Shown here piece by piece: positions 2,295 through 51,640 of a stretch of 64,000 nucleotides of DNA. The stretch spans positions 3,050-67,049 of the forward strand of contig JAPPAB010000158.1 of NCBI GenBank assembly GCA_026705765.1, given 5' to 3'. This DNA comes from Gemmatimonadota bacterium. Its GTDB lineage: Bacteria; Latescibacterota; UBA2968. The translations under genes were made by a program, and so were the position numbers. Position 1 is the first letter of the stretch. Each line of letters opens with the position of its first letter. Under the pieces are notes generated by a model, which was not told the DNA's origin, made no database searches, and saw only the letters and a program-made list of their open reading frames with translations.

Positions 2295-3785
2295 GTGATT
2301 TTGAAAAGATTTGGTTATGGGCTAATGGTGTGGATGCTATTTGTCTCAAATGTTGAGCCGTCACAGATGGACTCGGTGCTGGTCGATATTATCAAGGGCA
2401 ATTATTACGGGGCAATGGTGCGGTGCGAGGATGTGATCGCAGTTGATTCAACAGCGGCGGATGCGTACCGATTTTTGGGATGGCTTCAGATTGTGACGAG
2501 GCAGGGCGATTTGCAAGAGGTAGGGGAGAATTTGCGGCGGGCCATTCATCTGAAAATTGAGGATGCAGGAGCGCATAACGATCTCGGCGTTGTGTATTTT
2601 TTTCAGCGTAACTACAGCCCGGCGATTGAAGCATTCAGGCAGGCGGTCGCGCTAAGACCCGATGAGACAATGTTTTACCGAAATCTGGGTTTTGTAGCTG
2701 AATTGGCGGGGGCGTATTCCGATGCGGAAGAGGCGTTTCAGGCTGTTTTGGAGCGAGACCCGACGGACGATCTGGCGGTTTACGGATATGGGCTTGCGCT
2801 GGTCAGGCAAGCGCGTTATGACGAGGCGCTGGAGGCATTTCAAAAGGCCGTCCACATGTTTTCGGATCGCAAAGAAGCGCATTTAGAAATTGGACAACTC
2901 ATGATGATGCACGGCAAGTATGCGTCTGCTATATCTGCGTACAAACGGGCGACAAAAATCGATTTTGAAGATCCCAAAGGTCATTATGGACTGGCACAGG
3001 CTTATCAGGTATCGGGCGATTCGCTATCGGCGCGGCATGCGTGGGAGTCGTTTAAGTTTTTTGACGAGCGCCATCGGCATGCGGTTCGAGACCAGTATGT
3101 GTTGCCCGCGCGATTTGATAAGGTAGCCGATTTGCTGGATTTCGGAGACAGGTTTGTGAGATTGGGGCATCACGATAAGGCTATAGGGGTTTATCAGCAA
3201 GCGGTCGCTCTGGTGGAAGATCCAGATTTGCCGTGGCGGTTTAGTCCGGAGGTTCCCGTGGTGTATCTGGCTCTGGGACAGTCCTATCAGGCGTTGGGGG
3301 ATGTAGAGCGAGCGCGGCGGTCTTATGATGCGGCTTTTGCGCTGGGTGAAGGGGGCCTGGTATCTGACGAGGCTTTGAGGCACAGGACAGATATGTTTTT
3401 GTGTGCCGATGGGTTGTCGCGCGATGTGGTGGAGGGATATGAGCGGATTGTGGCTATGGATCCGATTGCCTTTGCCGCGTTCTACATTTACGATCAGATT
3501 AGCCAGGCACAGGCGAAGACGGGAGATCTGAATAAGTGTATTTCGACCTATGAGACCAGAGCAGATCAGGTTGCGTATTCTGCGGGGTTGCTGGTGCGAT
3601 TGGGGGTGGCACATGCGGTGGCGGGAGATATGGACGCGGCAAAGGCGTTGTACGATCAGGTGATTGGGGGGGCGGAAGATCCGCGCGAGTTGTATCTCCA
3701 GTTGTCGGTTCTCTATGGTCGGGCGGGGCGGAAAGCGGAGGCAGAGGCAATGGCGGCAAAAGCATCCGCAGATGTACGCAGATAA
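2295..3785 (+). CDS. exported tetratricopeptide (TPR) repeat protein
   Basis: GTG start just downstream of GGAGGAG. N-terminal hydrophobic signal-like segment and repeated TPR-type helix pairs (A..Y..LG......G....A...F..A..L.P). The last codons (SADVRR) and the TAA stop lie inside decamer repeat A. Confidence 0.8.
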   Translation: MILKRFGYGLMVWMLFVSNVEPSQMDSVLVDIIKGNYYGAMVRCEDVIAVDSTAADAYRFLGWLQIVTRQGDLQEVGENLRRAIHLKIEDAGAHNDLGVVYFFQRNYSPAIEAFRQAVALRPDETMFYRNLGFVAELAGAYSDAEEAFQAVLERDPTDDLAVYGYGLALVRQARYDEALEAFQKAVHMFSDRKEAHLEIGQLMMMHGKYASAISAYKRATKIDFEDPKGHYGLAQAYQVSGDSLSARHAWESFKFFDERHRHAVRDQYVLPARFDKVADLLDFGDRFVRLGHHDKAIGVYQQAVALVEDPDLPWRFSPEVPVVYLALGQSYQALGDVERARRSYDAAFALGEGGLVSDEALRHRTDMFLCADGLSRDVVEGYERIVAMDPIAFAAFYIYDQISQAQAKTGDLNKCISTYETRADQVAYSAGLLVRLGVAHAVAGDMDAAKALYDQVIGGAEDPRELYLQLSVLYGRAGRKAEAEAMAAKASADVRR

Positions 3786-3794
3786 ACGCAGATG
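3764..3794 (+). repeat. decamer array A: ATCC + 3 x GCAGATnnnn
   Basis: GCAGAT occurs at 3768, 3778 and 3788 (exact 10-nt phasing) after an ATCC leader. It overlaps the 3' end and stop codon of the TPR gene. Confidence 0.85.
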
Positions 3795-3819
3795 AGTGTG
3801 ACTGTACTTTCACAATTGG

Positions 3820-5430
3820 ATGGGAGTATCAGTGATTAGAGTTATTGGCATTCTTTTTTTGTTTTTATGTTCGAGTTCTGTTGCCGCAGAGCAATTTGTG
3901 GAGGTTGCAGAAGCGTCTGGTATATCGTTTGTGCATCGGACCGGTGCGAGGGGGAATTGGCATTATTTGGAGACTATGGGGTCGGGCTGCGCTGTGTTTG
4001 ATGTGGATGGGGATGGGGATTTGGATCTGTATTTTGTCAATGGAGAACACGGGCAGGCGGGCGGCGAGAACGCGCTTTATCGAAACGATGGTGGATTTCG
4101 TTTTTCGGCTGTTCCAGGCGCGCTGGGTGTGGGGTATGGTATGGGGTGTACGGTTGGGGATTATGACAATGATGGCGATCTCGATCTTTATACGACGGGT
4201 TATGATGCCAATGTGCTGTATCAAAATGATGGGCGTGGTGGTTTTGCGGAAAAGAAGGCGGGGGTGGCGGGCGGTGGGTGGTCTGCTGGCGCCACCTTTT
4301 TTGATGCGGATGGGGATGGCGACCTGGATTTGTATGTGGTGCGCTATTTGACGTATGATGTGGAAACCGATCCGGATTGTGAGCGGGTGGGCGTTCGCAC
4401 GTATTGCGATCCGGGCTATTTTGAGGGGGCGCCGGATTTGCTTTATCGGAATGAGGGGAATGGAATATTTACGGATGTTTCCTTTGAGGCGGGTGTGGCG
4501 GATTCTTCGGGCAAAGGGCTTGGGGTGGTGAGTCTGGATTACGATGGGGATGGGGATACCGATCTCTATGTGGCGAATGATACGACGCCAAATTTTTTGT
4601 ATCGCAATGTGGGGGGACGGTTTGAGAATGTAGGGATAGAGGCGGGTGTGGCGTTTAATGCGCAGGGCCGGACACAGGCGGGGATGGGGGTCGATGTGGG
4701 AGATGTAGATGGAGACGGGCGATCAGATATTTTTGTGACGAATTTTTCCTACGAGACCAATGCGATTTATCAGCGTGCGGGGGGCGGATTTTTCATGGAG
4801 GGAAGTGTGTCAACCGGAATTGCCGGGGTGTCTTTGCTGCCTCTGGGATTTGGCACTCATTTTTTTGATTATGACAACGATGGCGATCTGGATCTGTTTG
4901 TGGCAAATGGGCATATTTTCCCAAATGTAAAGGCGTTTTCCAGGGCGGAGTCCTATTTACAAGCGGATCAAATATTTCGCAATGTGGATGGGCGATTTGA
5001 GGTGGTTAATGCGGGCGTTGAAACGCCGGGGGTGAGTCGTGGGTCGGCGATTGGCGATCTGGATGAGGATGGCGATCTGGATCTGGTGGTGTTGCATTCG
5101 GGGCAAAGGGCGCGGGTGTTTCGCAATGAATTTGAGAACTCGGGACACTGGATCGTTGTAAAGCTCGTGGGAGGTATGGAGGGAGCGGAAAGCGGGTTTT
5201 CAAATAGGGACGGGATTGGGGCGGTGGTGCATGTAAGCGCGGGGGGAAAGATCCAGGTGCGTGAGGTTCGGAGTCAGTCGAGCTATTTGTCGGCGAGCGA
5301 TTTGCGGCTTCATTTTGGGCTGGGCAATGCGCGTCGCGTGGATCGAATTGAGGTGCGCTGGGTGAGTGGCCGCGTGCAGGTGTTGGAAGATGTTGAGGTG
5401 GATCGCGTTGTGGTTGTGGAAGAGAATTGA
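3820..5430 (+). CDS. CRTAC1-family protein (FG-GAP/VCBS repeats + C-terminal UnbV/ASPIC domain), secreted
   Basis: Signal peptide (ILFLFLCSSSVAAEQ). Ca-loop repeats DVDGDGDLDLY, DYDNDGDLDLY, DADGDGDLDLY, DYDGDGDTDLY, DVDGDGRSDIF, DYDNDGDLDLF and DLDEDGDLDLV. C-terminal block NRDGIGAVV.V...G.IQVREVRSQSSYLSASDLRLHFGLG....VDRIEVRW.SG. Confidence 0.9.
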   Translation: MGVSVIRVIGILFLFLCSSSVAAEQFVEVAEASGISFVHRTGARGNWHYLETMGSGCAVFDVDGDGDLDLYFVNGEHGQAGGENALYRNDGGFRFSAVPGALGVGYGMGCTVGDYDNDGDLDLYTTGYDANVLYQNDGRGGFAEKKAGVAGGGWSAGATFFDADGDGDLDLYVVRYLTYDVETDPDCERVGVRTYCDPGYFEGAPDLLYRNEGNGIFTDVSFEAGVADSSGKGLGVVSLDYDGDGDTDLYVANDTTPNFLYRNVGGRFENVGIEAGVAFNAQGRTQAGMGVDVGDVDGDGRSDIFVTNFSYETNAIYQRAGGGFFMEGSVSTGIAGVSLLPLGFGTHFFDYDNDGDLDLFVANGHIFPNVKAFSRAESYLQADQIFRNVDGRFEVVNAGVETPGVSRGSAIGDLDEDGDLDLVVLHSGQRARVFRNEFENSGHWIVVKLVGGMEGAESGFSNRDGIGAVVHVSAGGKIQVREVRSQSSYLSASDLRLHFGLGNARRVDRIEVRWVSGRVQVLEDVEVDRVVVVEEN

Positions 5431-6771: not shown

Positions 6772-7734
6772 GTGAGGAATCAGTGGATATTGTATCTTCT
6801 GTTTTTTTCTCTGCTTCATTGTGCAGGGAACACCGGTCTGCTGGATTCCGATTATTCAATTGTTAAAGGCCGCATTGCGTTTGTGGGACCGGGGGATTTC
6901 AGGACATTCAAAATTTTTGTGATGCGTCCCGATGGCAAGGGGTTGATGAGGCTTACGAGAGAGCAGGGAGGCTATACCAATCCCTCCTGGTCTCCGAATG
7001 CGCGACGCATTGTATTTGCTTCAAACCGGGATGCCGTGGGAAATTTCGATATTTATATTTTTAATCTGGAGGATGGAGACATACAGAAGGTGGTCGATTT
7101 GCCCGGTCCCGATCTCGGTCCAGTCTGGTCTCCCGATGGTGGAAAGATTGCTTTTCAGGCGCAGAAGGATAATAGGGATAGATGGGATATCTACACGGTC
7201 AACCTCGATGGGACGGGATTGCAAAATCTGACAAATTCTCCCAGTAGTGATGAAGCTCCGGACTGGTCACCCGATGGACGCAGGATTGCTTTTCAATCGC
7301 GTCAGGGGAATAATATCGACATTTTTCTCATGGATGCAGATGGTTCTAATCGGGTCAGGCTTACGGATTTCAATGGTGTTCAGAATATTCATCCGGCCTG
7401 GTCGCCTGATGGAACGCGTATTGCATTTGCGTCAAATCGGCACCAACCACAGGTGCGGAATCAGTTCCCTGAGTGCGAGATTTATACTATGGGTTCCGAT
7501 GGGGCTATGGTGCGACGGTTGACCCTGGATGCGAGTTCTACAGTGGCTTTTTTTTCTCCTACCTGGTCGCCCGACGGTCAGAGGATTGCTTTTGAAGTGC
7601 GGCGAACCCACGAGAGACAGGGGGGCCTGGAACACAGGTTGATGATGATAAATGCCGATGGCACGGATTTGCATGAAGTTTCTGTGGATATGGAGGTCTC
7701 TGCGCCTCGCTGGTCGCCGAGGCAAACCGAGTAA
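6772..7734 (+). CDS. PD40 / TolB-like beta-propeller lipoprotein
   Basis: GTG start after AGGAGG. Lipoprotein-like signal (LLFFSLLHC). Five WSP(D/N)G..I(A/V)F repeats, each followed by .DI(Y/F).....DG, typical of WD40-like PD40 repeats. Confidence 0.85.
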   Translation: MRNQWILYLLFFSLLHCAGNTGLLDSDYSIVKGRIAFVGPGDFRTFKIFVMRPDGKGLMRLTREQGGYTNPSWSPNARRIVFASNRDAVGNFDIYIFNLEDGDIQKVVDLPGPDLGPVWSPDGGKIAFQAQKDNRDRWDIYTVNLDGTGLQNLTNSPSSDEAPDWSPDGRRIAFQSRQGNNIDIFLMDADGSNRVRLTDFNGVQNIHPAWSPDGTRIAFASNRHQPQVRNQFPECEIYTMGSDGAMVRRLTLDASSTVAFFSPTWSPDGQRIAFEVRRTHERQGGLEHRLMMINADGTDLHEVSVDMEVSAPRWSPRQTE

Positions 7735-34111: not shown

Positions 34112-34198
34112 AGATCAACTCCTGCTAAAAAGAAAGTGTTTACTTACTTATATAAGTTACTGGAATTTGGCAAATGCGTCAAGACAAGATAGGAGTGG

Positions 34199-34244
34199 TA
34201 TCCGCAGATGGACGCAGATGGACGCAGATAGATGCAGATGAAAT
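34199..34244 (+). repeat. decamer array B: TATCC + 4 x GCAGATnnnn
   Basis: GCAGAT occurs at 34204, 34214, 34224 and 34234 (exact 10-nt phasing). The array is intergenic, 88 nt upstream of the ABC exporter start and 23 nt downstream of the DUF1992-like gene's stop. Confidence 0.9.
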
Positions 34245-34266
34245 ATTACAATCGGATAGGAGGGGG

Positions 34267-36205: not shown

Positions 36206-38080
36206 AAAAAGTGCTTTGCGCTGTGAGGTCACGTTTTCAATGGGAATGGGTTTGGAGAGGCCGACTTTGAAGGCGAGCATCCACATGACGAAGATGCCAA
36301 AGAACAGCATGAGGAGTTGCCAGACCCAGAGCGAGGGCAAACCAAAAGGTGACCAGGTAGCCGGGGTATTGGGGTCGGAAAATAGGGTGTTGCCAACTGT
36401 GGCAAAAGGCCCAAACCCAACGAGGAACCACAAAACTGTGAGGATCCACGCCGGTGTCACCCATTTCTTCTGGTCTTCGGTGAGGCCAGAGACGGCCTGG
36501 ATGAAGGTGTGGTGTTTTTCGCGTTTTTCGCGTTCTTCGCTGTTTTCGGATCCAAATTTCGAGACGAGCAAGGCTATGATCAAGTTGGCGAATATGCCCC
36601 AGCCCGCGCTGTGAATGGTGAGGGGAAATGCGCCCCAGGGAAGTCCAAATACGGATACTGTGCGGTCGGTCAGGGTGACGGCGATAAGGCCAGCAACGAG
36701 GCCCCAGACCACGCCTTTGCGAGTGAGCCAGGGAAAGTAACACACGCCCATGAGAGCCGGGTACATCTGGAAGCCGTAGGCTACGGCCAGGCCACCGAGC
36801 ATGACGATGGCGCCGGTGAATTGTGCGGCGACGAATAGCGCGACCACTGTGACGACGATGACGAAGATGCGCCCACAGAGTTTTTGCACGCTGTCCGATG
36901 CGTCGGGGGCGACGTATTGTTTGTAGAGGTCGCGGGTGACCATGCCCGAGAAGGTGGACATGTAGGCTGCTCCTGTGGATTGCATTGCGGCGAGGGCACA
37001 AACCGCGAGCAAGCCGACGAGCCAGGGAGCCGAATCTGTGAGCAGGTTGATGAGTTGGGGAACGAGGTTTTTGTCATTGGCGGATTCAAAGATGCCGTTT
37101 GCAATGAGGATGTTGCCCCCAATGCCCTGAAAGATGGTGAAGGTGAAGAGGATGATGCCGATGATAATCGAGGATGCCACGACTTGCTGCCAGCGGAAGG
37201 GCTCGCTGGTTTTGTTGGAAAAACACCACATGGAAAAGGCGGGTGAGGATTGAATGCCCATGAGCGCGAACATGTAAGTGAGGCACATCATGCCGGTCCA
37301 AACGCTGCCCTGTGCTTCTGCCCCTGAAGATACGGCCTGGATCGTTCCCGGCATAGCCACGATGTTTGAGTGGCCGGCAGGGGTGAGTTTTTGACCCGAT
37401 GCGAGGTCTTGTTTGACATAATTTGCGAGGCCGTCGGTAAATCCGCCCCAACCTCCTGTAAAGCTGATGGCGATGCCACCGAGGATGATGATGCCGAGGG
37501 CGAGCAAGATGCACTGGGCGCAGTCAACATAGGCTACGGAGCGAAGACCACCGGATGCGACGTAGATCATAACAATGGCAGAGAGGGCAAACATGCCAAT
37601 TTCAATGCCGATCATGCCGTCTGTGAGTACGTGAAAGAGGTCGCCAGAGGCGCGGAGTTGTACGCCGAGATAAGGTACTGAAAAGAGGAAGGCTACGAGA
37701 ACCGTGAGCAGGCGCATGGCATTGCCACCGTAGTAGGTGGTGTACATTTCGCCGGGGGTAATGTGTTCAAAAGCTCGACCAACAACCCATTGGCGGCGCA
37801 AAAAGAGCACGCCGGTAAAGGGAATTGTGAGGGCGTAGAAGGAGGCGAATGCGTAGGGCAGGCCATCGATGAGGATTTTTCCGGGGTGTCCCACAAAGGT
37901 CCAGCCGGAAAAGCTGGTGGCGGTGGCCGCGAGAACAAATACCCATAAGCCAATGGTGCGCCCGGCCACGAAGTAGTCGGTTGATGTACGCGAAGAAATG
38001 GCGCCTCTGACACCCCAGAAGAGGCAATAAGCCCAGTAAAGTCCCACAAAAGCAAAAAGCCAGATTAGTTTAGCGTCCAC
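36197..38080 (-). CDS. sodium:solute symporter (SSS) family transporter with C-terminal extension
   Basis: 627 aa and 13 or more TM segments. The N-terminal region (YWAYCLFWGVRGA....STDYFVAGR) is typical of SSS family members. Confidence 0.85.
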   Translation of the reverse strand: MDAKLIWLFAFVGLYWAYCLFWGVRGAISSRTSTDYFVAGRTIGLWVFVLAATATSFSGWTFVGHPGKILIDGLPYAFASFYALTIPFTGVLFLRRQWVVGRAFEHITPGEMYTTYYGGNAMRLLTVLVAFLFSVPYLGVQLRASGDLFHVLTDGMIGIEIGMFALSAIVMIYVASGGLRSVAYVDCAQCILLALGIIILGGIAISFTGGWGGFTDGLANYVKQDLASGQKLTPAGHSNIVAMPGTIQAVSSGAEAQGSVWTGMMCLTYMFALMGIQSSPAFSMWCFSNKTSEPFRWQQVVASSIIIGIILFTFTIFQGIGGNILIANGIFESANDKNLVPQLINLLTDSAPWLVGLLAVCALAAMQSTGAAYMSTFSGMVTRDLYKQYVAPDASDSVQKLCGRIFVIVVTVVALFVAAQFTGAIVMLGGLAVAYGFQMYPALMGVCYFPWLTRKGVVWGLVAGLIAVTLTDRTVSVFGLPWGAFPLTIHSAGWGIFANLIIALLVSKFGSENSEEREKREKHHTFIQAVSGLTEDQKKWVTPAWILTVLWFLVGFGPFATVGNTLFSDPNTPATWSPFGLPSLWVWQLLMLFFGIFVMWMLAFKVGLSKPIPIENVTSQRKALFEK

Positions 38081-45982: not shown

Positions 45983-46020
45983 CATACTAATTTTACATGA
46001 ATTAGTATGAAATTAGTATG
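45983..46020. promoter_or_regulatory. operator-like inverted repeat plus third half-site upstream of the SDR/sugar-ABC operon
   Basis: CATACTAATT (45983-45992), 7-nt spacer, AATTAGTATG (46000-46009) form a perfect 10-bp inverted repeat. A tandem copy AATTAGTATG follows at 46011-46020. The site lies 67-104 nt upstream of the SDR start codon (45916, - strand). Confidence 0.5.
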
Positions 46021-46053
46021 AATATCCTGGATTGACCATGTTGTGATTGGTAA

Positions 46054-46989: not shown

Positions 46990-48201
46990 TTACACTTCTG
47001 TTTGATTTAGCCAATATTCCACGGGTGTTGAAAGAAACCGTTCGAGAGAAATCCCGCCCGGACCGACGATTAACATGCGACCTGGTTTGAAAGATTTGGA
47101 GAAAGATTCCAGGCCGGGGAGCGAAGTAGTTGTGCGTCCGCTTTTTACTTCTATTGCCACGAGTTTCTTTCCTTTTCGCAAGACAAAATCTACTTCGCGG
47201 TTGCGCTCCCGCCAATAAAACACTTCACACGTACCGCCAGCGGATGCGTTGACCAGGTGTGCGCCCACTGCGGACTCTGTCAAGCGTCCCCAAAATTCGC
47301 GGTCTGCAAAGGCTTCTGATTGCGTCATGTCAGACAGTGCGGTTATTAGCGCGGTGTTGAAGACTTGAAACTTGGGGCTTGATCCCCGTCGCCGCGCTGT
47401 GTCACCCGCGTATTTATGCAACCCGGTGAGTACGCCAGCACCTGCAAGCAGGTCGAGGTAGTGGGCAAGTGTGGTTGTGTTCCCGGCATCCTGAAGTTGG
47501 CCTATCATTTTTGTGTAGGAAAGTATTTGTCCTGAATAGGCACAACCCAGTTCAAATAGTCGCCGAAGCAGTGCCGGTTTGTCAACGCGGGAAAGCAAAA
47601 GCACGTCGCGCGCGACGGTTGTTTCAATGAGAGAATCTATGATGTAGCGCGACCAGCGGAGCGGTTGTTCTATCAATGGTGCAGCACCTGGATAGGCACC
47701 GTAAAAAAGATATTGGTTCAGATCCCATCCGAAGGCCTCCCGCATTTCGGAAAAGCTCCAATGCGGCATGTGCAGGATTTCAAAACGTCCCGCAAGGCTT
47801 TCTGTCAGTCCATGCCCGATTAAAAGCGGGGCAGAGCCAAGTAATACTGTTTTTACCAATGTTTTTTTGCGGGTGTCTTCATCCCAAAGATACTTGACCA
47901 TTTCAGCCCAATGCGGAACTTTCTGTACTTCATCCAATACGAGTAAGGCGCCTTTTTCTGAACTGGCGGCAAGCAATCGCGCCTCTTCCCATTGGGATTC
48001 AAGCCATCCATTGCCGCGAAGTGTCGGTTCATCTGCACTGGCAAAGTGATATGGCAGTTTGCTCTGGTCAGCGACTTGCAATGCAAGGGTTGTTTTGCCG
48101 ACCTGCCTCGCTCCCGATACGACCTGAATGAATCGCCGGGGTTCTTTCAACCGCCGCGCTAACTCCGCAGCTTGAGGTCTGATGAATATTTCGTTGCTCA
48201 T
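46990..48201 (-). CDS. AAA+ ATPase (AAA_14-like N-domain + DUF4143-like C-domain)
   Basis: RRFIQVVSGARQVGKTTL Walker A and LLVLDEVQ Walker B. The C-terminal half (GAHLVN......VFYWRE...EVDFVL......AIEVK) resembles the PD-(D/E)xK-like DUF4143 module. Confidence 0.8.
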   Translation of the reverse strand: MSNEIFIRPQAAELARRLKEPRRFIQVVSGARQVGKTTLALQVADQSKLPYHFASADEPTLRGNGWLESQWEEARLLAASSEKGALLVLDEVQKVPHWAEMVKYLWDEDTRKKTLVKTVLLGSAPLLIGHGLTESLAGRFEILHMPHWSFSEMREAFGWDLNQYLFYGAYPGAAPLIEQPLRWSRYIIDSLIETTVARDVLLLSRVDKPALLRRLFELGCAYSGQILSYTKMIGQLQDAGNTTTLAHYLDLLAGAGVLTGLHKYAGDTARRRGSSPKFQVFNTALITALSDMTQSEAFADREFWGRLTESAVGAHLVNASAGGTCEVFYWRERNREVDFVLRKGKKLVAIEVKSGRTTTSLPGLESFSKSFKPGRMLIVGPGGISLERFLSTPVEYWLNQTEV

Positions 48202-48204
48202 AGT

Positions 48205-48238
48205 ATTGAGTAATTTTACTCAATGTATTGAGTAAAAT
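48205..48238. promoter_or_regulatory. palindromic operator-like site abutting the ATPase start codon
   Basis: ATTGAGTAA-TT-TTACTCAAT (48205-48224, perfect 9-bp arms) plus a third half-site ATTGAGTAAAAT (48227-48238). It begins 4 nt upstream of the ATG at 48201, where an RBS would be expected. Confidence 0.5.
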
Positions 48239-48260
48239 GTAAAGTTGTGTGGTAAGGATT

Positions 48261-48294
48261 TATCCGCAGATGAACGCAGATGGGCACAGATAAA
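48261..48294 (+). repeat. decamer array C: TATCC + GCAGAT, GCAGAT, ACAGAT units
   Basis: Units at 48266, 48276 and 48286 (10-nt phasing). The array sits at the left edge of the AT-rich segment. Confidence 0.85.
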
Positions 48295-48394
48295 ACCCTT
48301 ATGAAATAGATGGTTAGGTATCTTTAGTAACGAATGCATGACAAATCATTTGGATATTGATCTATCCTGCTATAGCTTGCATCTCGACCCCGTT

Positions 48395-49291
48395 TCACGA
48401 CCTCCCAATCCTTATCTGTCGCTGGCTGGACTGGACCATTTTATTTTTGGAAGCAATTTTTAATGGTTCTGAGTATTTAAGAATGTATTTGAGTTTTCGC
48501 AAATTTCTGCTTTCCAACTCTTTTTTTGTAAACAGTACAAAAAATACTATAAATTCGTCACAGTCGATATATCCCGTGACTTCTTGACAAGGTAACTGAT
48601 CCGAAGTCACTACTCTAATATATGTATTTCTATTATCGGTTCTTTTAGGTGAACGCCGTTCGTTTATACATAAATTTGTATACAGGGCCTCCATGCCTTT
48701 ATTTTGCATTTCAACAAGTTCGTCGATACATGAAGCTTTTTCGTCTTTATGCCAAAAATATAGATACATCCATTCTAAATTTTCTTGAGCTTTTTTTAAA
48801 TCCAAGCCTCGTTGGTAAAGACAAGCGAGGAAGCCTGTTTGTCTATTATTATCGATTACCCAACCAAAGGGGGCAGGTAATAATATGGAATTCTTACCTG
48901 AATACGGGATTGCTATCAAGCCTTGATTATTTTGTAAATCTTCGAAGTTTAACACATCGAGCTCGATCTTCTCAGGCCCATAATGGGCTCGCTTGATTGC
49001 TGCTTCCGAATATCCTTTTTGAGTTATTAATAGCCCCTGATTAGCACCTATGTCTCCTATCATTGAGATGAACGACTCAACACATTTAATATCTACTTTT
49101 CGCGAGAAATACTTTGCATCCACCGCAATCTTGATTGGAAATCCTGCAACCTCATCTTCGATTAGCATATCTACTTGGCGTTCTTTTTTTGAATAGTGGC
49201 CTATAATTTTCGCATCGTAAGTAATTTTCGCTTCAGGGTACATCTGCGCGAAATATTGATATACTTCTTTTTCGTAGTCTTTCCAATTCAT
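48395..49291 (-). CDS. Mrr-cat-like PD-(D/E)xK restriction-endonuclease domain protein with unknown C-terminal domain
   Basis: The N-terminal ~125 aa (WKDYEKEVYQYF......KERQVDMLIED.....IAVDAKYFSRKVDIKCVESF......ANQGLLITQKGYS..A) fits the D...(D/E)xK Mrr catalytic pattern. The gene is conspicuously AT-rich relative to its neighbours. The C-terminal ~170 aa has no recognisable motif. Confidence 0.65.
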   Translation of the reverse strand: MNWKDYEKEVYQYFAQMYPEAKITYDAKIIGHYSKKERQVDMLIEDEVAGFPIKIAVDAKYFSRKVDIKCVESFISMIGDIGANQGLLITQKGYSEAAIKRAHYGPEKIELDVLNFEDLQNNQGLIAIPYSGKNSILLPAPFGWVIDNNRQTGFLACLYQRGLDLKKAQENLEWMYLYFWHKDEKASCIDELVEMQNKGMEALYTNLCINERRSPKRTDNRNTYIRVVTSDQLPCQEVTGYIDCDEFIVFFVLFTKKELESRNLRKLKYILKYSEPLKIASKNKMVQSSQRQIRIGRS

Positions 49292-49405
49292 TTTGTATGT
49301 CCTATAATCAAGATTACGAACAATTTTTGGAAATTGTAATTTTTACCATCGGTAGCAGTTGTTCGGAATTTCCGAATAACTGAATCTCGCTGTAATTCGC
49401 TGTAA

Positions 49406-49855
49406 TCAAAGATGTTTTTCAGATTTATTATCCGCAGATGGGCGCAGATTAAACACCAGCCTTTTGTATTCCAGTCTCGCAGCACCAAAATTGATGAGCA
49501 GAGCTTTGTTCAAGCCTGATGCCTTGAGGTAATGAATAACTTGAGCCTCTTCAACACCGGACAATTTTTGCAAAGCCTTTAATTCGACGATCACAGAATT
49601 AAAACAAAGAAAATCCACTTGATAATAGGATTTCAGCACCTGCCCCTTATAACATATTTCCAACTTCTTTTCCCGAACATAAGGCACCCCCCGCAACAAA
49701 AACTCCTGCTCTAATGCTTCCTGATAAATCGCCTCAAGAAAACCACACCCCAACTCATTATGCACCGCCATAGCAGCCCCTATAACCGCATAAGTCTTCT
49801 CATCTCTCCTACTATCAGCCCTTCTCTGTTTTCTGTTTAAATTCCTCGCCTTCAT
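49406..49855 (-). CDS. GxxExxY protein (PD-(D/E)xK nuclease superfamily, TIGR04256-like)
   Basis: [29 protein letters not shown] contains the GxxExxY motif, and [13 protein letters not shown] supplies the D/ExK core. The C-terminal tail NLRPSADN is encoded by decamer array D. Confidence 0.8.
49429..49453 (+). repeat. decamer array D: TATCC + 2 x GCAGATnnnn
   Basis: GCAGAT at 49434 and 49444, inside the 3' end of the GxxExxY gene. A separate perfect 10-nt tandem TCGCTGTAAT x2 lies at 49387-49406. Confidence 0.8.
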
Positions 49856-49880
49856 CTATAATCCTTTCGATCTTGCCTTT

Positions 49881-49911
49881 CATCTGCGTTAATCTGCGTA
49901 ATCTGCGGATC
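49881..49911 (-). repeat. decamer array E (inverted orientation): ATCC + 3 x GCAGATnn(n)
   Basis: The + strand reads CATCTGCGTTAATCTGCGTAATCTGCGGAT, with ATCTGC at 49882, 49892 and 49901 (spacing 10 and 9). It lies 26 nt upstream of the GxxExxY start. Confidence 0.85.
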
Positions 49912-49936
49912 ATTTGGGTTTTCTTCTGTGGATCCC

Positions 49937-51640
49937 TTATTCCTTCAACGTCAGCATCACGCGTCGCACATCCATCACCTGTGAATGAGGTACGTCAAGG
50001 GCGCGCAAGGTCAAGGTTCCTCTGCCTGCATCCAGATGGATCGTACCCAGTGTCAATGGCTCGAAATCCTTTACATAGGACTCGCCGCCGCGGGGATAGC
50101 GGTCATCTGCTGCGCCGATTAGCGGTGGGTCGTGTGCGTCGGTTACCTGTCCTTGTACTTTTGTTGCCTGGCCGTGCGCGGGGTGAAATACCAGCTCGAC
50201 GGTTGATCCCACATCTTCTTCAGGGCATGTATAATAAACCGCTGCTTCATAGTCGCCCGTTGTGCCGACTTCGATATCCCAGGTCATCCGATCGCCCACC
50301 TGGGTCCAGTGCGTGAAATAAGAGCAGTTGGGCGCGCCAGCACTGCGCTGGACTGTGCCGTGATGCACCCCGTCTCGTGCAGGCAGGCGGGTCGTTTTCC
50401 AGTAGCCCGTGGCAAAGGGACGGTCGTCGTTGACGGGCAAGACTTCAGCGTGATATTTTGCTACTGCATCTGACAATTCCGCGTGAACATCGGGATATTC
50501 TCCGGACACATCTGTTGTCTGTCCACCATCGGCGGCCATATCGTATAACTTGCCTTCTATGTCCAATCGGAAGCGCTGATTGCGTGCGCTCAATTGCGCC
50601 CGCTGGTGTGATAGAATGATGCGGTCAGCCCATTCGGGATCTTCGCCCAATAGCAGGGGTTTGAGGCTGCGGCCATCCAGCGGTTTTTCAACTTCCAGGT
50701 CGATATCCGCGAGGTCTGCAAATGTGGGCAATAGATCAATCGCTCCGGCGATTTCTTCAATGACTGTACCTGCTTGAATATGCCCCTTCCAGCGCATCAA
50801 GCCCGCCACGCGCACGCCGCCTTCATCTGTTGATCCTTTTGTGCCTTTCATCCCGCCATTCCAGCGCGCGCCATTGGGCCCATTGTCTCCAAAATAAAAC
50901 ACAATGGTATCTTCCGCGATTCCCAATTCGTCGAGTTTGTCCAGTAAGCGTCCCACATTCCAATCGATATTTTCACACAGGGCGAGTGCCGCCCGCGTGC
51001 GCACTATCTCTTCCTGGTCGGGATTGGTCGCCCGCATCTCAATCGGTTTATCGCGGAATGGCTCGTAAAACTCGTCGGGCACCTGAAATGGCGTGTGTGG
51101 GATATTGTAGGGGAGATAACAGAAGAACGGTTGACCGCGTTCGACATTTGCTGTCATAAAATCCATGGCGCGATCTGTACACTCATCGGGTAAGTACCCC
51201 TTTCCGCGCGTGAGTTCGCCATTGTGCTCGAGTTCGGCATCAAAATATTGTCCCCAGTGTCCGGAACAGAACCCAAAAAACTCATCAAATCCCCGCGCGT
51301 TTGGATGATAGGGGTGTTGCGTGCCATTGTGCCACTTGCCATAAGCACCCGTGGCATATCCAGCGGCTTTGAAGACATCGGCAATGGTGGTTTCATCGAG
51401 GTTTAGTCGCTCGGCACCCGTGCTCACGCCGTGGACTCCGCCGCGCAGATGATAGCGCCCCGTCAAAAACTCTGCTCGCGTGGGCGCACATACCGGGCAG
51501 ACGTAAAATCGGTCGAATAGCGCGCCATCTCGTGCGAGAGAATCCACATTGGGCGTGTTGAGATTTGTGTTGCCGTGTACACTCAAATCACCCCAACCCT
51601 GATCGTCGGTCAAGATCACGAGAATATTTGGTCTGGTCAT
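49937..51640 (-). CDS. Cys-type sulfatase with extra C-terminal domain, no signal peptide
   Basis: [14 protein letters not shown] and the sulfatase signature [15 protein letters not shown] (C-x-P-x-R). A C-terminal ~130 aa beta-rich extension follows. ATG overlaps the upstream stop (TAATG). Confidence 0.9.

Follow-up and report, generated by a model that had tools for sequence, protein, structure and literature searches.

Inverted arrays of phased heptamers border a GxxExxY nuclease gene and may be the ends of a small selfish cassette

The stretch of DNA analysed here, 64,000 nucleotides (nt) of the Gemmatimonadota contig JAPPAB010000158.1 and hereafter referred to as the window, contains a single gene of the GxxExxY (PDDEXK_3) family, which is bracketed by two inverted arrays of a short periodic repeat. 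With three further copies elsewhere, the window holds five such arrays, labelled A to E, for each of which the strand is given separately. The arrays and the gene are the following:

3764-3793, plus strand: array A, three units
34200-34239, plus strand: array B, four units, the final one TGCAGAT
48262-48291 (module 48262-48294), plus strand: array C, three units, the final one CACAGAT; a second array of the right-end type on the gene strand
49430-49449, plus strand: array D, two units; right (3') inverted end of the GxxExxY cassette
49882-49910 (module 49878-49910), minus strand: array E, three units; left (5') end of the GxxExxY cassette on the gene strand
49406-49855, minus strand: GxxExxY/PDDEXK_3 gene, 149 amino acids (Pfam 1.9e-38, TIGR04256 1.1e-40)

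An earlier note on this DNA had described five arrays with 15 units and a common start, all located at gene boundaries, and this description holds. The 15 units were found over arrays A to E, each array opens with ATCCGCAGAT, and all five are positioned at gene boundaries, with C, D and E forming the borders of the GxxExxY gene and of a neighbouring Mrr-like gene. Their number is far above chance: ATCCGCAGAT matched exactly five times in the window (0.18 expected), and GCAGATNNNNGCAGAT, allowing at most one mismatch, nine times (0.39 expected), a count that was reached in none of 100 shuffles. The pairs of GCAGAT at a distance of 10 nt are these same nine occurrences (0.39 expected). The strict 10-nt phasing that had also been proposed turned out to be too narrow, as the repeats are phased but proceed in steps of 9-10 nt, with one 9-nt step in array E, and the core of each unit comprises 7 nt, CGCAGAT, followed by two to three variable bases. 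Usually, three CGCAGAT copies stand behind a terminal ATC. On the gene strand, array E accordingly reads ATC, CGCAGAT, TA, CGCAGAT, TAA, CGCAGAT and GAAA and lies 26 nt upstream of the GxxExxY ATG, and array D overlaps the last codons of the gene (AAT CTG CGC CCA TCT GCG GAT, translated as N L R P S A D). A spurious open reading frame (ORF) at 49873 opens with MPFICVNLRNLRI, the translation of array E. Immediately outside E, a degenerate additional array head, GATCCACAGAAGAAAAC, was noted at 49911-49936; a comparable second head, ATCCGCAGATGAAAGG, lies between array and gene at locus L152. A de novo scan also returned other short repeats with a period of 9-11 nt at 45997-46022, 7167-7189 and 36518-36540 (ATGAA.., GGATA.. 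and TTCGC.., respectively), which are unrelated to the CGCAGAT family and possibly of chance origin. A resemblance of TTATCCGCA to a DnaA box was confined to the terminal unit and judged coincidental.

The GxxExxY protein scored 131.8 bits against the Pfam profile PF13366 (cut-off 22) and 138.6 bits against the NCBIfam profile TIGR04256 (cut-off 35). The residues G38-F-L-E41-A-I-Y44, D81 and E91-L-K93 were invariant in alignments of 71 homologues and, judged by its sequence, the protein retains the PD-(D/E)xK catalytic residues E41, D81, E91 and K93. In the AlphaFold2 model (mean predicted local distance difference test score, pLDDT, 85.7), the core exceeded a pLDDT of 95 and residues 5-15 and 138-149 fell below 50; the array-encoded N- and C-terminal tails are therefore predicted to be disordered. 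The best neighbours in the Protein Data Bank (PDB) identified by Foldseek were Cas4 SSO0001 (E 9e-5, template modelling (TM) score 0.49), lambda exonuclease, AdnAB nuclease domains, MGME1 and ACE1, so that the modelled fold appears restriction-endonuclease-like with RecB/Cas4-like nucleases as the nearest relatives, albeit at modest TM-scores of about 0.5. Catalytic residues, profiles and predicted fold thus agree with the PD-(D/E)xK identity proposed earlier. A PDB sequence search with the protein gave no match and no family member with a solved structure, and a PADLOC search gave no match for GxxExxY. Clustering at 50% identity (E≤1e-3) gives 14,569 clusters for this large family, and its function is listed as 'Unknown' in a survey of PD-(D/E)xK proteins (PMC3424549).

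The pairing of gene and arrays is not restricted to the window. Among 80 independent metagenomic GxxExxY loci, 53-70% identical to the query, a forward array was present upstream in 52, an inverted array downstream in 61 and both in 45, at a background rate of 0.02 arrays per 64 kb in shuffled sequence. At 28 of 66 other loci, the inverted array opens with a core whose first base is the second base of the invariant N136 codon (AAT CTG CG), indicating a right end fused to the gene at a constant point. Most of the 120 closest homologues (62-100% identical) start with ..PQ[IM]TQ[IM].AD.. and end with ..FNLR.SA.SAD.., that is, with the translation of a forward array at the 5' end and of an inverted array at the 3' end of the gene. 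Together with array D, which encodes the C-terminus of the protein in the window, these tails account for the recurrent terminal peptides that the earlier note had mentioned. The few named sources among the 120 homologues are Gemmatimonadota, Pirellulales, Chlorobium, Prosthecochloris, Desulfobacter, Betaproteobacteria and Terrimicrobiaceae; Verrucomicrobia are also given among the sources of homologues with array-translated termini.

With respect to genomic context, 54 of 66 loci (82%) have an upstream neighbour that runs in the same direction, and several cassettes fit precisely between the genes of an operon, stops and starts overlapping, such as sbcD-GxxExxY-sbcC in Chlorobium and hsdM-GxxExxY-hsdS-type loci, as well as after DNA methylase genes. 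Cassettes between sbcD and sbcC, or between hsdM and the next type I restriction-modification gene, occur at L159 (4001-4444), L179, L181 and L157/L160-L169. At L159, both junctions end in TCATG (CGTCATG followed by CTGAATAATCC on one side, GGATCAAAAATCATG followed by AAG on the other), a single event which may represent a duplication of the host start codon. When 433 array-adjacent ORFs were clustered, GxxExxY was the sole recurrent family. Other cargo families were considered and rejected, as the remaining clusters consisted of host genes (DNA methylases, SbcC, CCA-adding enzyme) or antisense artefacts.

Comparison of the two arms gave some indication of which feature is under selection. Most often (71 of 157 pairs), the inverted repeat reaches 3 nt past the outer core, and the outer triplet (ATC, AAC, GTC, AGC or GGA) is identical in both arms in 113 of 161 pairs. 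The core variants CGCAGAT and CACAGAT are common to a whole element and do not change pair by pair: the odds ratio was about 4 for matched (pairing) units and about 8 for unmatched ones, and spacers were 0.571 identical in matched units and 0.577 in unmatched ones, compared with 0.426 for spacers from different elements. The two arms showed no base-pair compensation specific to position. Since the core-variant association is no stronger for pairing units, selection on repeated recognition sites is more plausible than selection on a base-paired stem, which can nevertheless form between the arms. A coding reason for the conservation was rejected, as the same arrays occur without ORFs, the core is kept in all three frames and the tails are disordered, which places the constraint on the nucleic acid and not on the protein. 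An intrinsic terminator was rejected as well: the flanks are T-rich upstream and A-rich downstream, leaving no U-tract after the stem on either strand, and the arrays show no orientation bias relative to neighbouring genes. An Rfam scan of 47900-50200 (E≤1) gave no match.

Approached from the arrays, the repeat proved to be far more widespread than the gene. A scan with a three-unit pattern yielded at least 120 species genomes plus 25 IMG/VR stretches; the counts of pattern-selected arrays in the following refer to the matches listed. The phyla among them include Verrucomicrobiota, Planctomycetota, Chloroflexota, Acidobacteriota, Nitrospirota, Cyanobacteria, Proteobacteria, Bacteroidota, Gemmatimonadota, Lentisphaerota and others, the Archaea are represented by Methanosarcinales, Methanoperedens and Thermoplasmatota, and cultured isolates are among the genome matches. 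Exactly three units were present in 153 of 189 arrays (120 genome loci), and 76 of the 189 form 38 convergent pairs at distances of 6-193 nt. Apart from a single array beside a GxxExxY gene, the pattern-selected arrays are gene-less hairpins, i.e., two facing arrays, or solo copies, and solo arrays are common. The convergent pairs fold into hairpins with a predicted free energy of -50 to -69 kcal/mol. In total, 113 gene-less hairpins were collected, the loops of which are alike within one contig; remnants of GxxExxY were recognized in few of them, with three clear cases (L196, L243 and L073). In the group of L243 (3466-3925), L181 (after 2138) and L196, whole hairpins are duplicated in tandem (three copies with a 167-nt period), tandem right-end arrays and tandem GxxExxY cassettes are present, and several loops carry fragments of GxxExxY such as KRMVFN and DTQTYALI...KRLVFN. 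The genes next to pattern-selected arrays are ordinary, and the arrays show no orientation bias towards them.

The copy number was also high in the sponge metagenomes that contain this genome. In many contigs, similarity is confined to the 33-nt module (48262-48294, 49878-49910 or 34198-34230), with unrelated sequence on either side; the match to array E runs exactly from 49875/8 to 49910/5, and many contigs match 48262-48294, i.e., array C, alone. The summed array depth was 26x that of single-copy flanks in the source sample (X1) and >100x in others, and the source sample contains at least five further contigs of equal depth with the array. The body of the GxxExxY gene, at ≥80% nucleotide identity, is single-copy in these metagenomes. 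Arrays exceed genes by about two orders of magnitude (~100 to 1). As nearly every gene of the clade has arrays and very few arrays have a gene, the association is strongly one-way. Several hairpins of the AAC type were found between genes in five IMG/VR contigs (L014, L015, L017, L019 and L023) that are phage-like, a call made by eye from long ORFs resembling portal and other structural proteins. The phage-like stretches fetched (~18 kb of one 25-kb contig) contained no GxxExxY. Arrays are also present in metatranscriptome contigs.

Within the window, the GxxExxY cassette is part of a larger variable region, which comprises the following additional features:

48246-49937, no strand: low-GC (guanine plus cytosine) block of 1.69 kb, recognized from the GC profile and present or absent among related populations
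48395-49291, minus strand: Mrr_cat-like gene of the restriction-endonuclease fold, 298 amino acids (Pfam 2.1e-08), between the right-end arrays D and C
46990-48201, minus strand: AAA_14 + DUF4143 ATPase gene (PADLOC candidate defence family PDC-S01, 6e-175)

The order on the minus strand is a sulfatase gene (49937-51640), array E, GxxExxY, array D, the Mrr-like gene, array C, the ATPase gene and a PhyH gene. Read on the gene strand, E is forward and D and C are inverted, which makes E and D the inverted ends around GxxExxY and C a second right-type end. E, gene and D thus constitute an intact cassette, and C is a further right end that encloses the Mrr-like gene, probably cargo, and forms the outer limit of the low-GC block. 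The ATPase, Mrr-like and GxxExxY genes together form a small variable islet of defence type. The GC content is 0.33-0.45 between C and E and 0.50-0.59 outside. An empty allele was identified in X4, X6 and X9 contigs, which run from 48245-48247 to 49938 via 28-30 unrelated bases and are without C, the Mrr-like gene, D, GxxExxY and E. As these 28-30 nt cannot be aligned, the boundaries of the insertion are approximate. The block from C to E is missing in most related sponge-symbiont populations; in X5 and X6, the read depth within it amounts to ~3-5% of that of the flanks, indicating that the empty allele is the majority there. The ATPase gene is present in the window and at L151 and missing from L152/L153 and X7 contigs. 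At L152/L153 the Mrr-like gene is also replaced by ~290 nt, with D and C remaining in place. In one population (run X16), array D has one extra unit (CGCAGATGGG). Just upstream of the ATPase start, at 48194-48237, repeated palindromic motifs (TACTCAATA/TATTGAGTA) with an operator-like look were noted, which are kept at L152 although the ATPase gene is gone.

Arrays A and B represent gene-less copies, each of which continues into a shared right-end motif:

3764-3824, plus strand: array A with right-end motif CAATTGGATGGG, gene-less, between two co-directional genes
34200-34260, plus strand: array B with right-end motif CAATCGGATAGG, gene-less, between two co-directional genes

Array A overlaps the 3' end of a TPR gene (2295-3785), its final codons and stop included, and lies 27 nt before an FG-GAP/ASPIC gene; array B is neighboured by an ABC-transporter gene and a gene for a protein of 248 amino acids. 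The motif CAATYGGATRGG at 3813-3824 (A) and 34249-34260 (B), its only two exact matches in the window, starts 20 nt and 10 nt past the last unit, respectively, and both elements measure 58 nt from ATCC to GGAT. As the motif was not seen after arrays at ~250 other loci, the element ending in it may be a gene-less form specific to this genome. In some related contigs (X4/X9), array A and ~80 nt after it (window 3760-3872) are swapped for 49 other bases.

More distant relatives retain the architecture with other cores. Six IMG/VR loci (L250-L255, gene at 2501-2848 of each) carry GxxExxY orthologues at one syntenic site, with a lipoprotein gene following, which are 47-53% identical to the query and 71-84% to each other. 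Their arrays comprise about three units at 9-10 nt and are inverted at the 3' end of the gene; the cores differ (CAAATGA, CCRGATGAA, CGGAATWAA, CGCAGAA), with the core being common to both arms of each cassette, and three different array families occur within 5 kb at L255. A second IMG/VR scan with the distant clade returned the same six loci only. The tails of 150 cluster representatives similarly show paired peptide repeats, e.g., PITPITPIS with IGVIGVIGG. As the architecture is kept with other cores, the relationship between gene and array is older than any one core sequence.

Taken together, we give about even chances to the interpretation in which a small selfish, horizontally spread GxxExxY cassette has the arrays as its inverted ends, its nuclease acts on them, and gene-less copies are spread in trans. 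The data show the anatomy of the cassette, the conserved geometry of gene and arrays, the spread in many copies and across phyla, the insertion polymorphism, the retention of the catalytic residues and the architecture kept with other cores around distant orthologues; array binding and cutting by the protein and the mode of copy movement are inferred. Each end would be a module of ~33 nt, consisting of a terminal ATC (AAC, GTC, AGC or GGA in other subfamilies) and three CGCAGAT heptamers, one per helical turn. Two inverted modules would bound a promoter-less cassette of ~0.45-0.55 kb with the GxxExxY PD-(D/E)xK nuclease gene as the sole recurrent gene. In the window, E and D would be the ends of an intact cassette and C a right end trapping the Mrr-like gene, so that E to C would behave as one 1.65-kb insertion. 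The nuclease may recognize the phased heptamers at the ends and cut or recombine there; such end recognition would keep its own flanks intact and would spread gene-less doublets and solo copies in trans, in a manner resembling RAYTs (transposases associated with repetitive extragenic palindromic (REP) sequences). In this view, the cassette would be far outnumbered by non-autonomous relatives, namely the gene-less hairpins and the solo copies. A wider version of this interpretation is possible though rather doubtful: GxxExxY proteins in general would be the enzymes of an unrecognized class of pan-prokaryotic repeat-propagating elements, in which a minimal Cas4/RecB-like nuclease reads three phased heptamers at either inverted end and multiplies gene-less hairpins in trans in bacteria, archaea and their phages.

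Several observations weigh against the selfish cassette. The association of arrays with GxxExxY genes that the earlier note predicted holds from gene to array (45 of 80 loci with both) but not from array to gene, since only one of the 189 pattern-selected arrays adjoins a GxxExxY gene. Gene remnants are rare in hairpin loops (1/113), and an origin of the hairpins by recent internal deletion of cassettes was rejected: the last codons of the gene (KRLVFN) are kept beside the inverted arm in only one of 113, indicating that most hairpins are not fresh deletion derivatives. No identical cassette was found at two sites of one genome. Among strains, the low-GC block is present or absent as expected for array-bounded cassettes, but the empty allele does not break off at the arrays: its edges are found 16 and 27 nt further out. 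At L152/L153, the changes that removed the Mrr-like and ATPase genes are not located at arrays, and C, D and E are all unchanged; the arrays thus are static in several strains and the DNA between them changes. The geometry of a mobile unit, which had been read from the inverted arrays, is supported by conserved inverted ends in many phyla and by a foreign low-GC block that is absent from related populations, but not by a target-site duplication, as the lengths of abutting direct repeats were distributed as for random partners. Orthologues 71-84% identical to each other have quite different cores, and one contig has three array families, suggesting a fast-evolving specificity or else a protein that does not read the core. 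Finally, no report of binding or cleavage by any GxxExxY protein was found in the literature.

Much of this would also fit an independent REP-like family, or a family resembling miniature inverted-repeat transposable elements (MITEs), which is multiplied by another enzyme or by host recombination. GxxExxY would then merely settle at the arrays without acting on them, for example by homing into a hairpin, or through a shared tendency to accumulate at permissive sites between genes. The excess of arrays over genes of ~100 to 1, the phage-like contigs with several hairpins and no GxxExxY in the stretches fetched, the scarcity of gene remnants in hairpin loops, and the occurrence of several array families per contig and of different cores on near-identical orthologues all point in this direction. 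However, GxxExxY is the only gene family recurring beside arrays, the junction between the 3' end of the gene and the arm is nucleotide-exact in many lineages, the same core accompanies the same protein clade across phyla, and the arms of each cassette agree in core even in distant clades. We therefore consider an independent repeat rather unlikely.

An explanation at the RNA level appears more unlikely still. The inverted arms would pair in a read-through transcript, and the resulting ~27-bp stem would be cut by RNase III as in 23S rRNA intervening sequences (IVSs), freeing a monocistronic mRNA for the selfish ORF and limiting harm to the host operon. The cassette geometry matches the Coxiella IVS, an element of 428-444 nt, cleaved by RNase III, in which a 28-bp terminal stem encloses a single small ORF (PMC4990558), and the predicted stems of up to -50 to -69 kcal/mol, the position of cassettes within operons with a co-directional upstream gene in 82% of loci and the arrays in metatranscriptome contigs also speak for it. 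Yet the position-specific compensation between the arms is lacking (spacers 0.571 versus 0.577, odds ratio no higher for paired units), solo arrays are common, the orientation of the arrays is not biased with respect to neighbouring genes, the Rfam scan gave no match, and a stem leaves the periodicity of 9-10 nt unexplained. As a further alternative, the arrays would be unrelated to GxxExxY activity and serve as operator- or iteron-type binding sites for a regulator of the host or of a plasmid, or else as attC-like sites of integron cassettes; the helical-face phasing resembles that of iterons and of centromere arrays of the ribbon-helix-helix type, one subfamily has AAC...GTT termini like the R''/R' sites of attC, and tandem cassettes occur. 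This is highly improbable, as no replication, partition or integron-integrase gene recurs near the arrays, those in the window end in ATC...GAT and not in AAC...GTT, the core is conserved across phyla, unlike that of attC sites, and copies are scattered between ordinary genes. The iteron-like binding site suggested earlier is therefore without support in the sense of a plasmid origin, with no replication gene or origin nearby.

Literature searches by family name, accession and repeat sequence returned no paper on flanking repeats, the repeat sequence or the function of the family, and the papers containing the bare 10-mer ATCCGCAGAT were all unrelated. The pairing of repeat and nuclease across bacteria, archaea and phage contigs is therefore undescribed. 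It provides the large, function-less GxxExxY/PDDEXK_3 family with a concrete candidate substrate, its own flanking arrays, and identifies a multi-copy repeat that very distant prokaryotes share. The arrays also explain the odd recurrent tails of these proteins (PQITQMNAD.., ..NLRESAQSAD, ICVNLRNLRI) and many spurious annotated ORFs. Should the nuclease act on the arrays, they would represent a second case, with a distinct mechanism, of a repeat family maintained by a dedicated enzyme, and the system might yield a compact sequence-programmed nuclease; a repeat-propagating GxxExxY system, if true, would be the PD-(D/E)xK counterpart of the REPIN-RAYT system.

Among known systems, the proposed cassette resembles REP/REPIN-RAYT in that a short extragenic repeat occurs in many copies per genome, often as hairpin-forming inverted doublets, together with a single associated nuclease or transposase gene that is flanked by the repeats, and without target-site duplication. 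In addition, the gene can occupy a syntenic site while the flanking repeat sequence varies between lineages; the same pattern of a gene older than its repeat sequence is known for RAYT genes and their REP sequences. Unlike RAYTs, the protein is a ~125-amino-acid PD-(D/E)xK (Cas4/RecB-like) nuclease and not an HUH Y1 transposase of the IS200/IS605 type. REPs are imperfect palindromes of 20-40 nt, whereas each arm here is a direct heptamer array that is not self-complementary, so that only arm pairs form hairpins, and the core CGCAGAT is common to many phyla and archaea, unlike the species-specific REPs. MITEs and autonomous insertion sequences share the terminal inverted repeats, the abundant gene-less derivatives and the presence/absence polymorphism among strains; they differ by a DDE transposase and target-site duplications, neither of which was found here, and, unlike in MITEs, most gene-less copies share the ends alone with the gene-bearing form. 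Free-standing homing endonuclease genes of phages and selfish genes resembling type II restriction systems are likewise small nuclease genes that sit precisely between conserved operon genes and spread horizontally, but homing endonuclease genes have neither bounding repeat arrays nor a multi-copy gene-less counterpart. The ATC...GAT ends in the window (AAC...GTT in another subfamily only) and the lack of a recurrent integrase family near the arrays separate the element from integron cassettes and attC sites, and its ordinary chromosomal neighbours separate it from plasmid and phage iterons, which lie beside a rep gene or origin. The 23S rRNA IVSs of Coxiella and Leptospira with their S23p (four-helix-bundle) ORF are similar in size (~0.43-0.5 kb), in terminal inverted repeats of ~28 bp, in the one small ORF and in their location inside a transcription unit (PMC4990558). 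Unlike these, the cassette lies between protein-coding genes, has no rRNA or Rfam match, encodes a protein of another fold family and ends in periodic arrays. By analogy, REPIN-RAYT would thus be the closest working parallel and the 23S rRNA IVS the closest geometric one, and its PD-(D/E)xK enzyme, its phased heptamer arms and its location between protein-coding genes make the cassette a member of neither.

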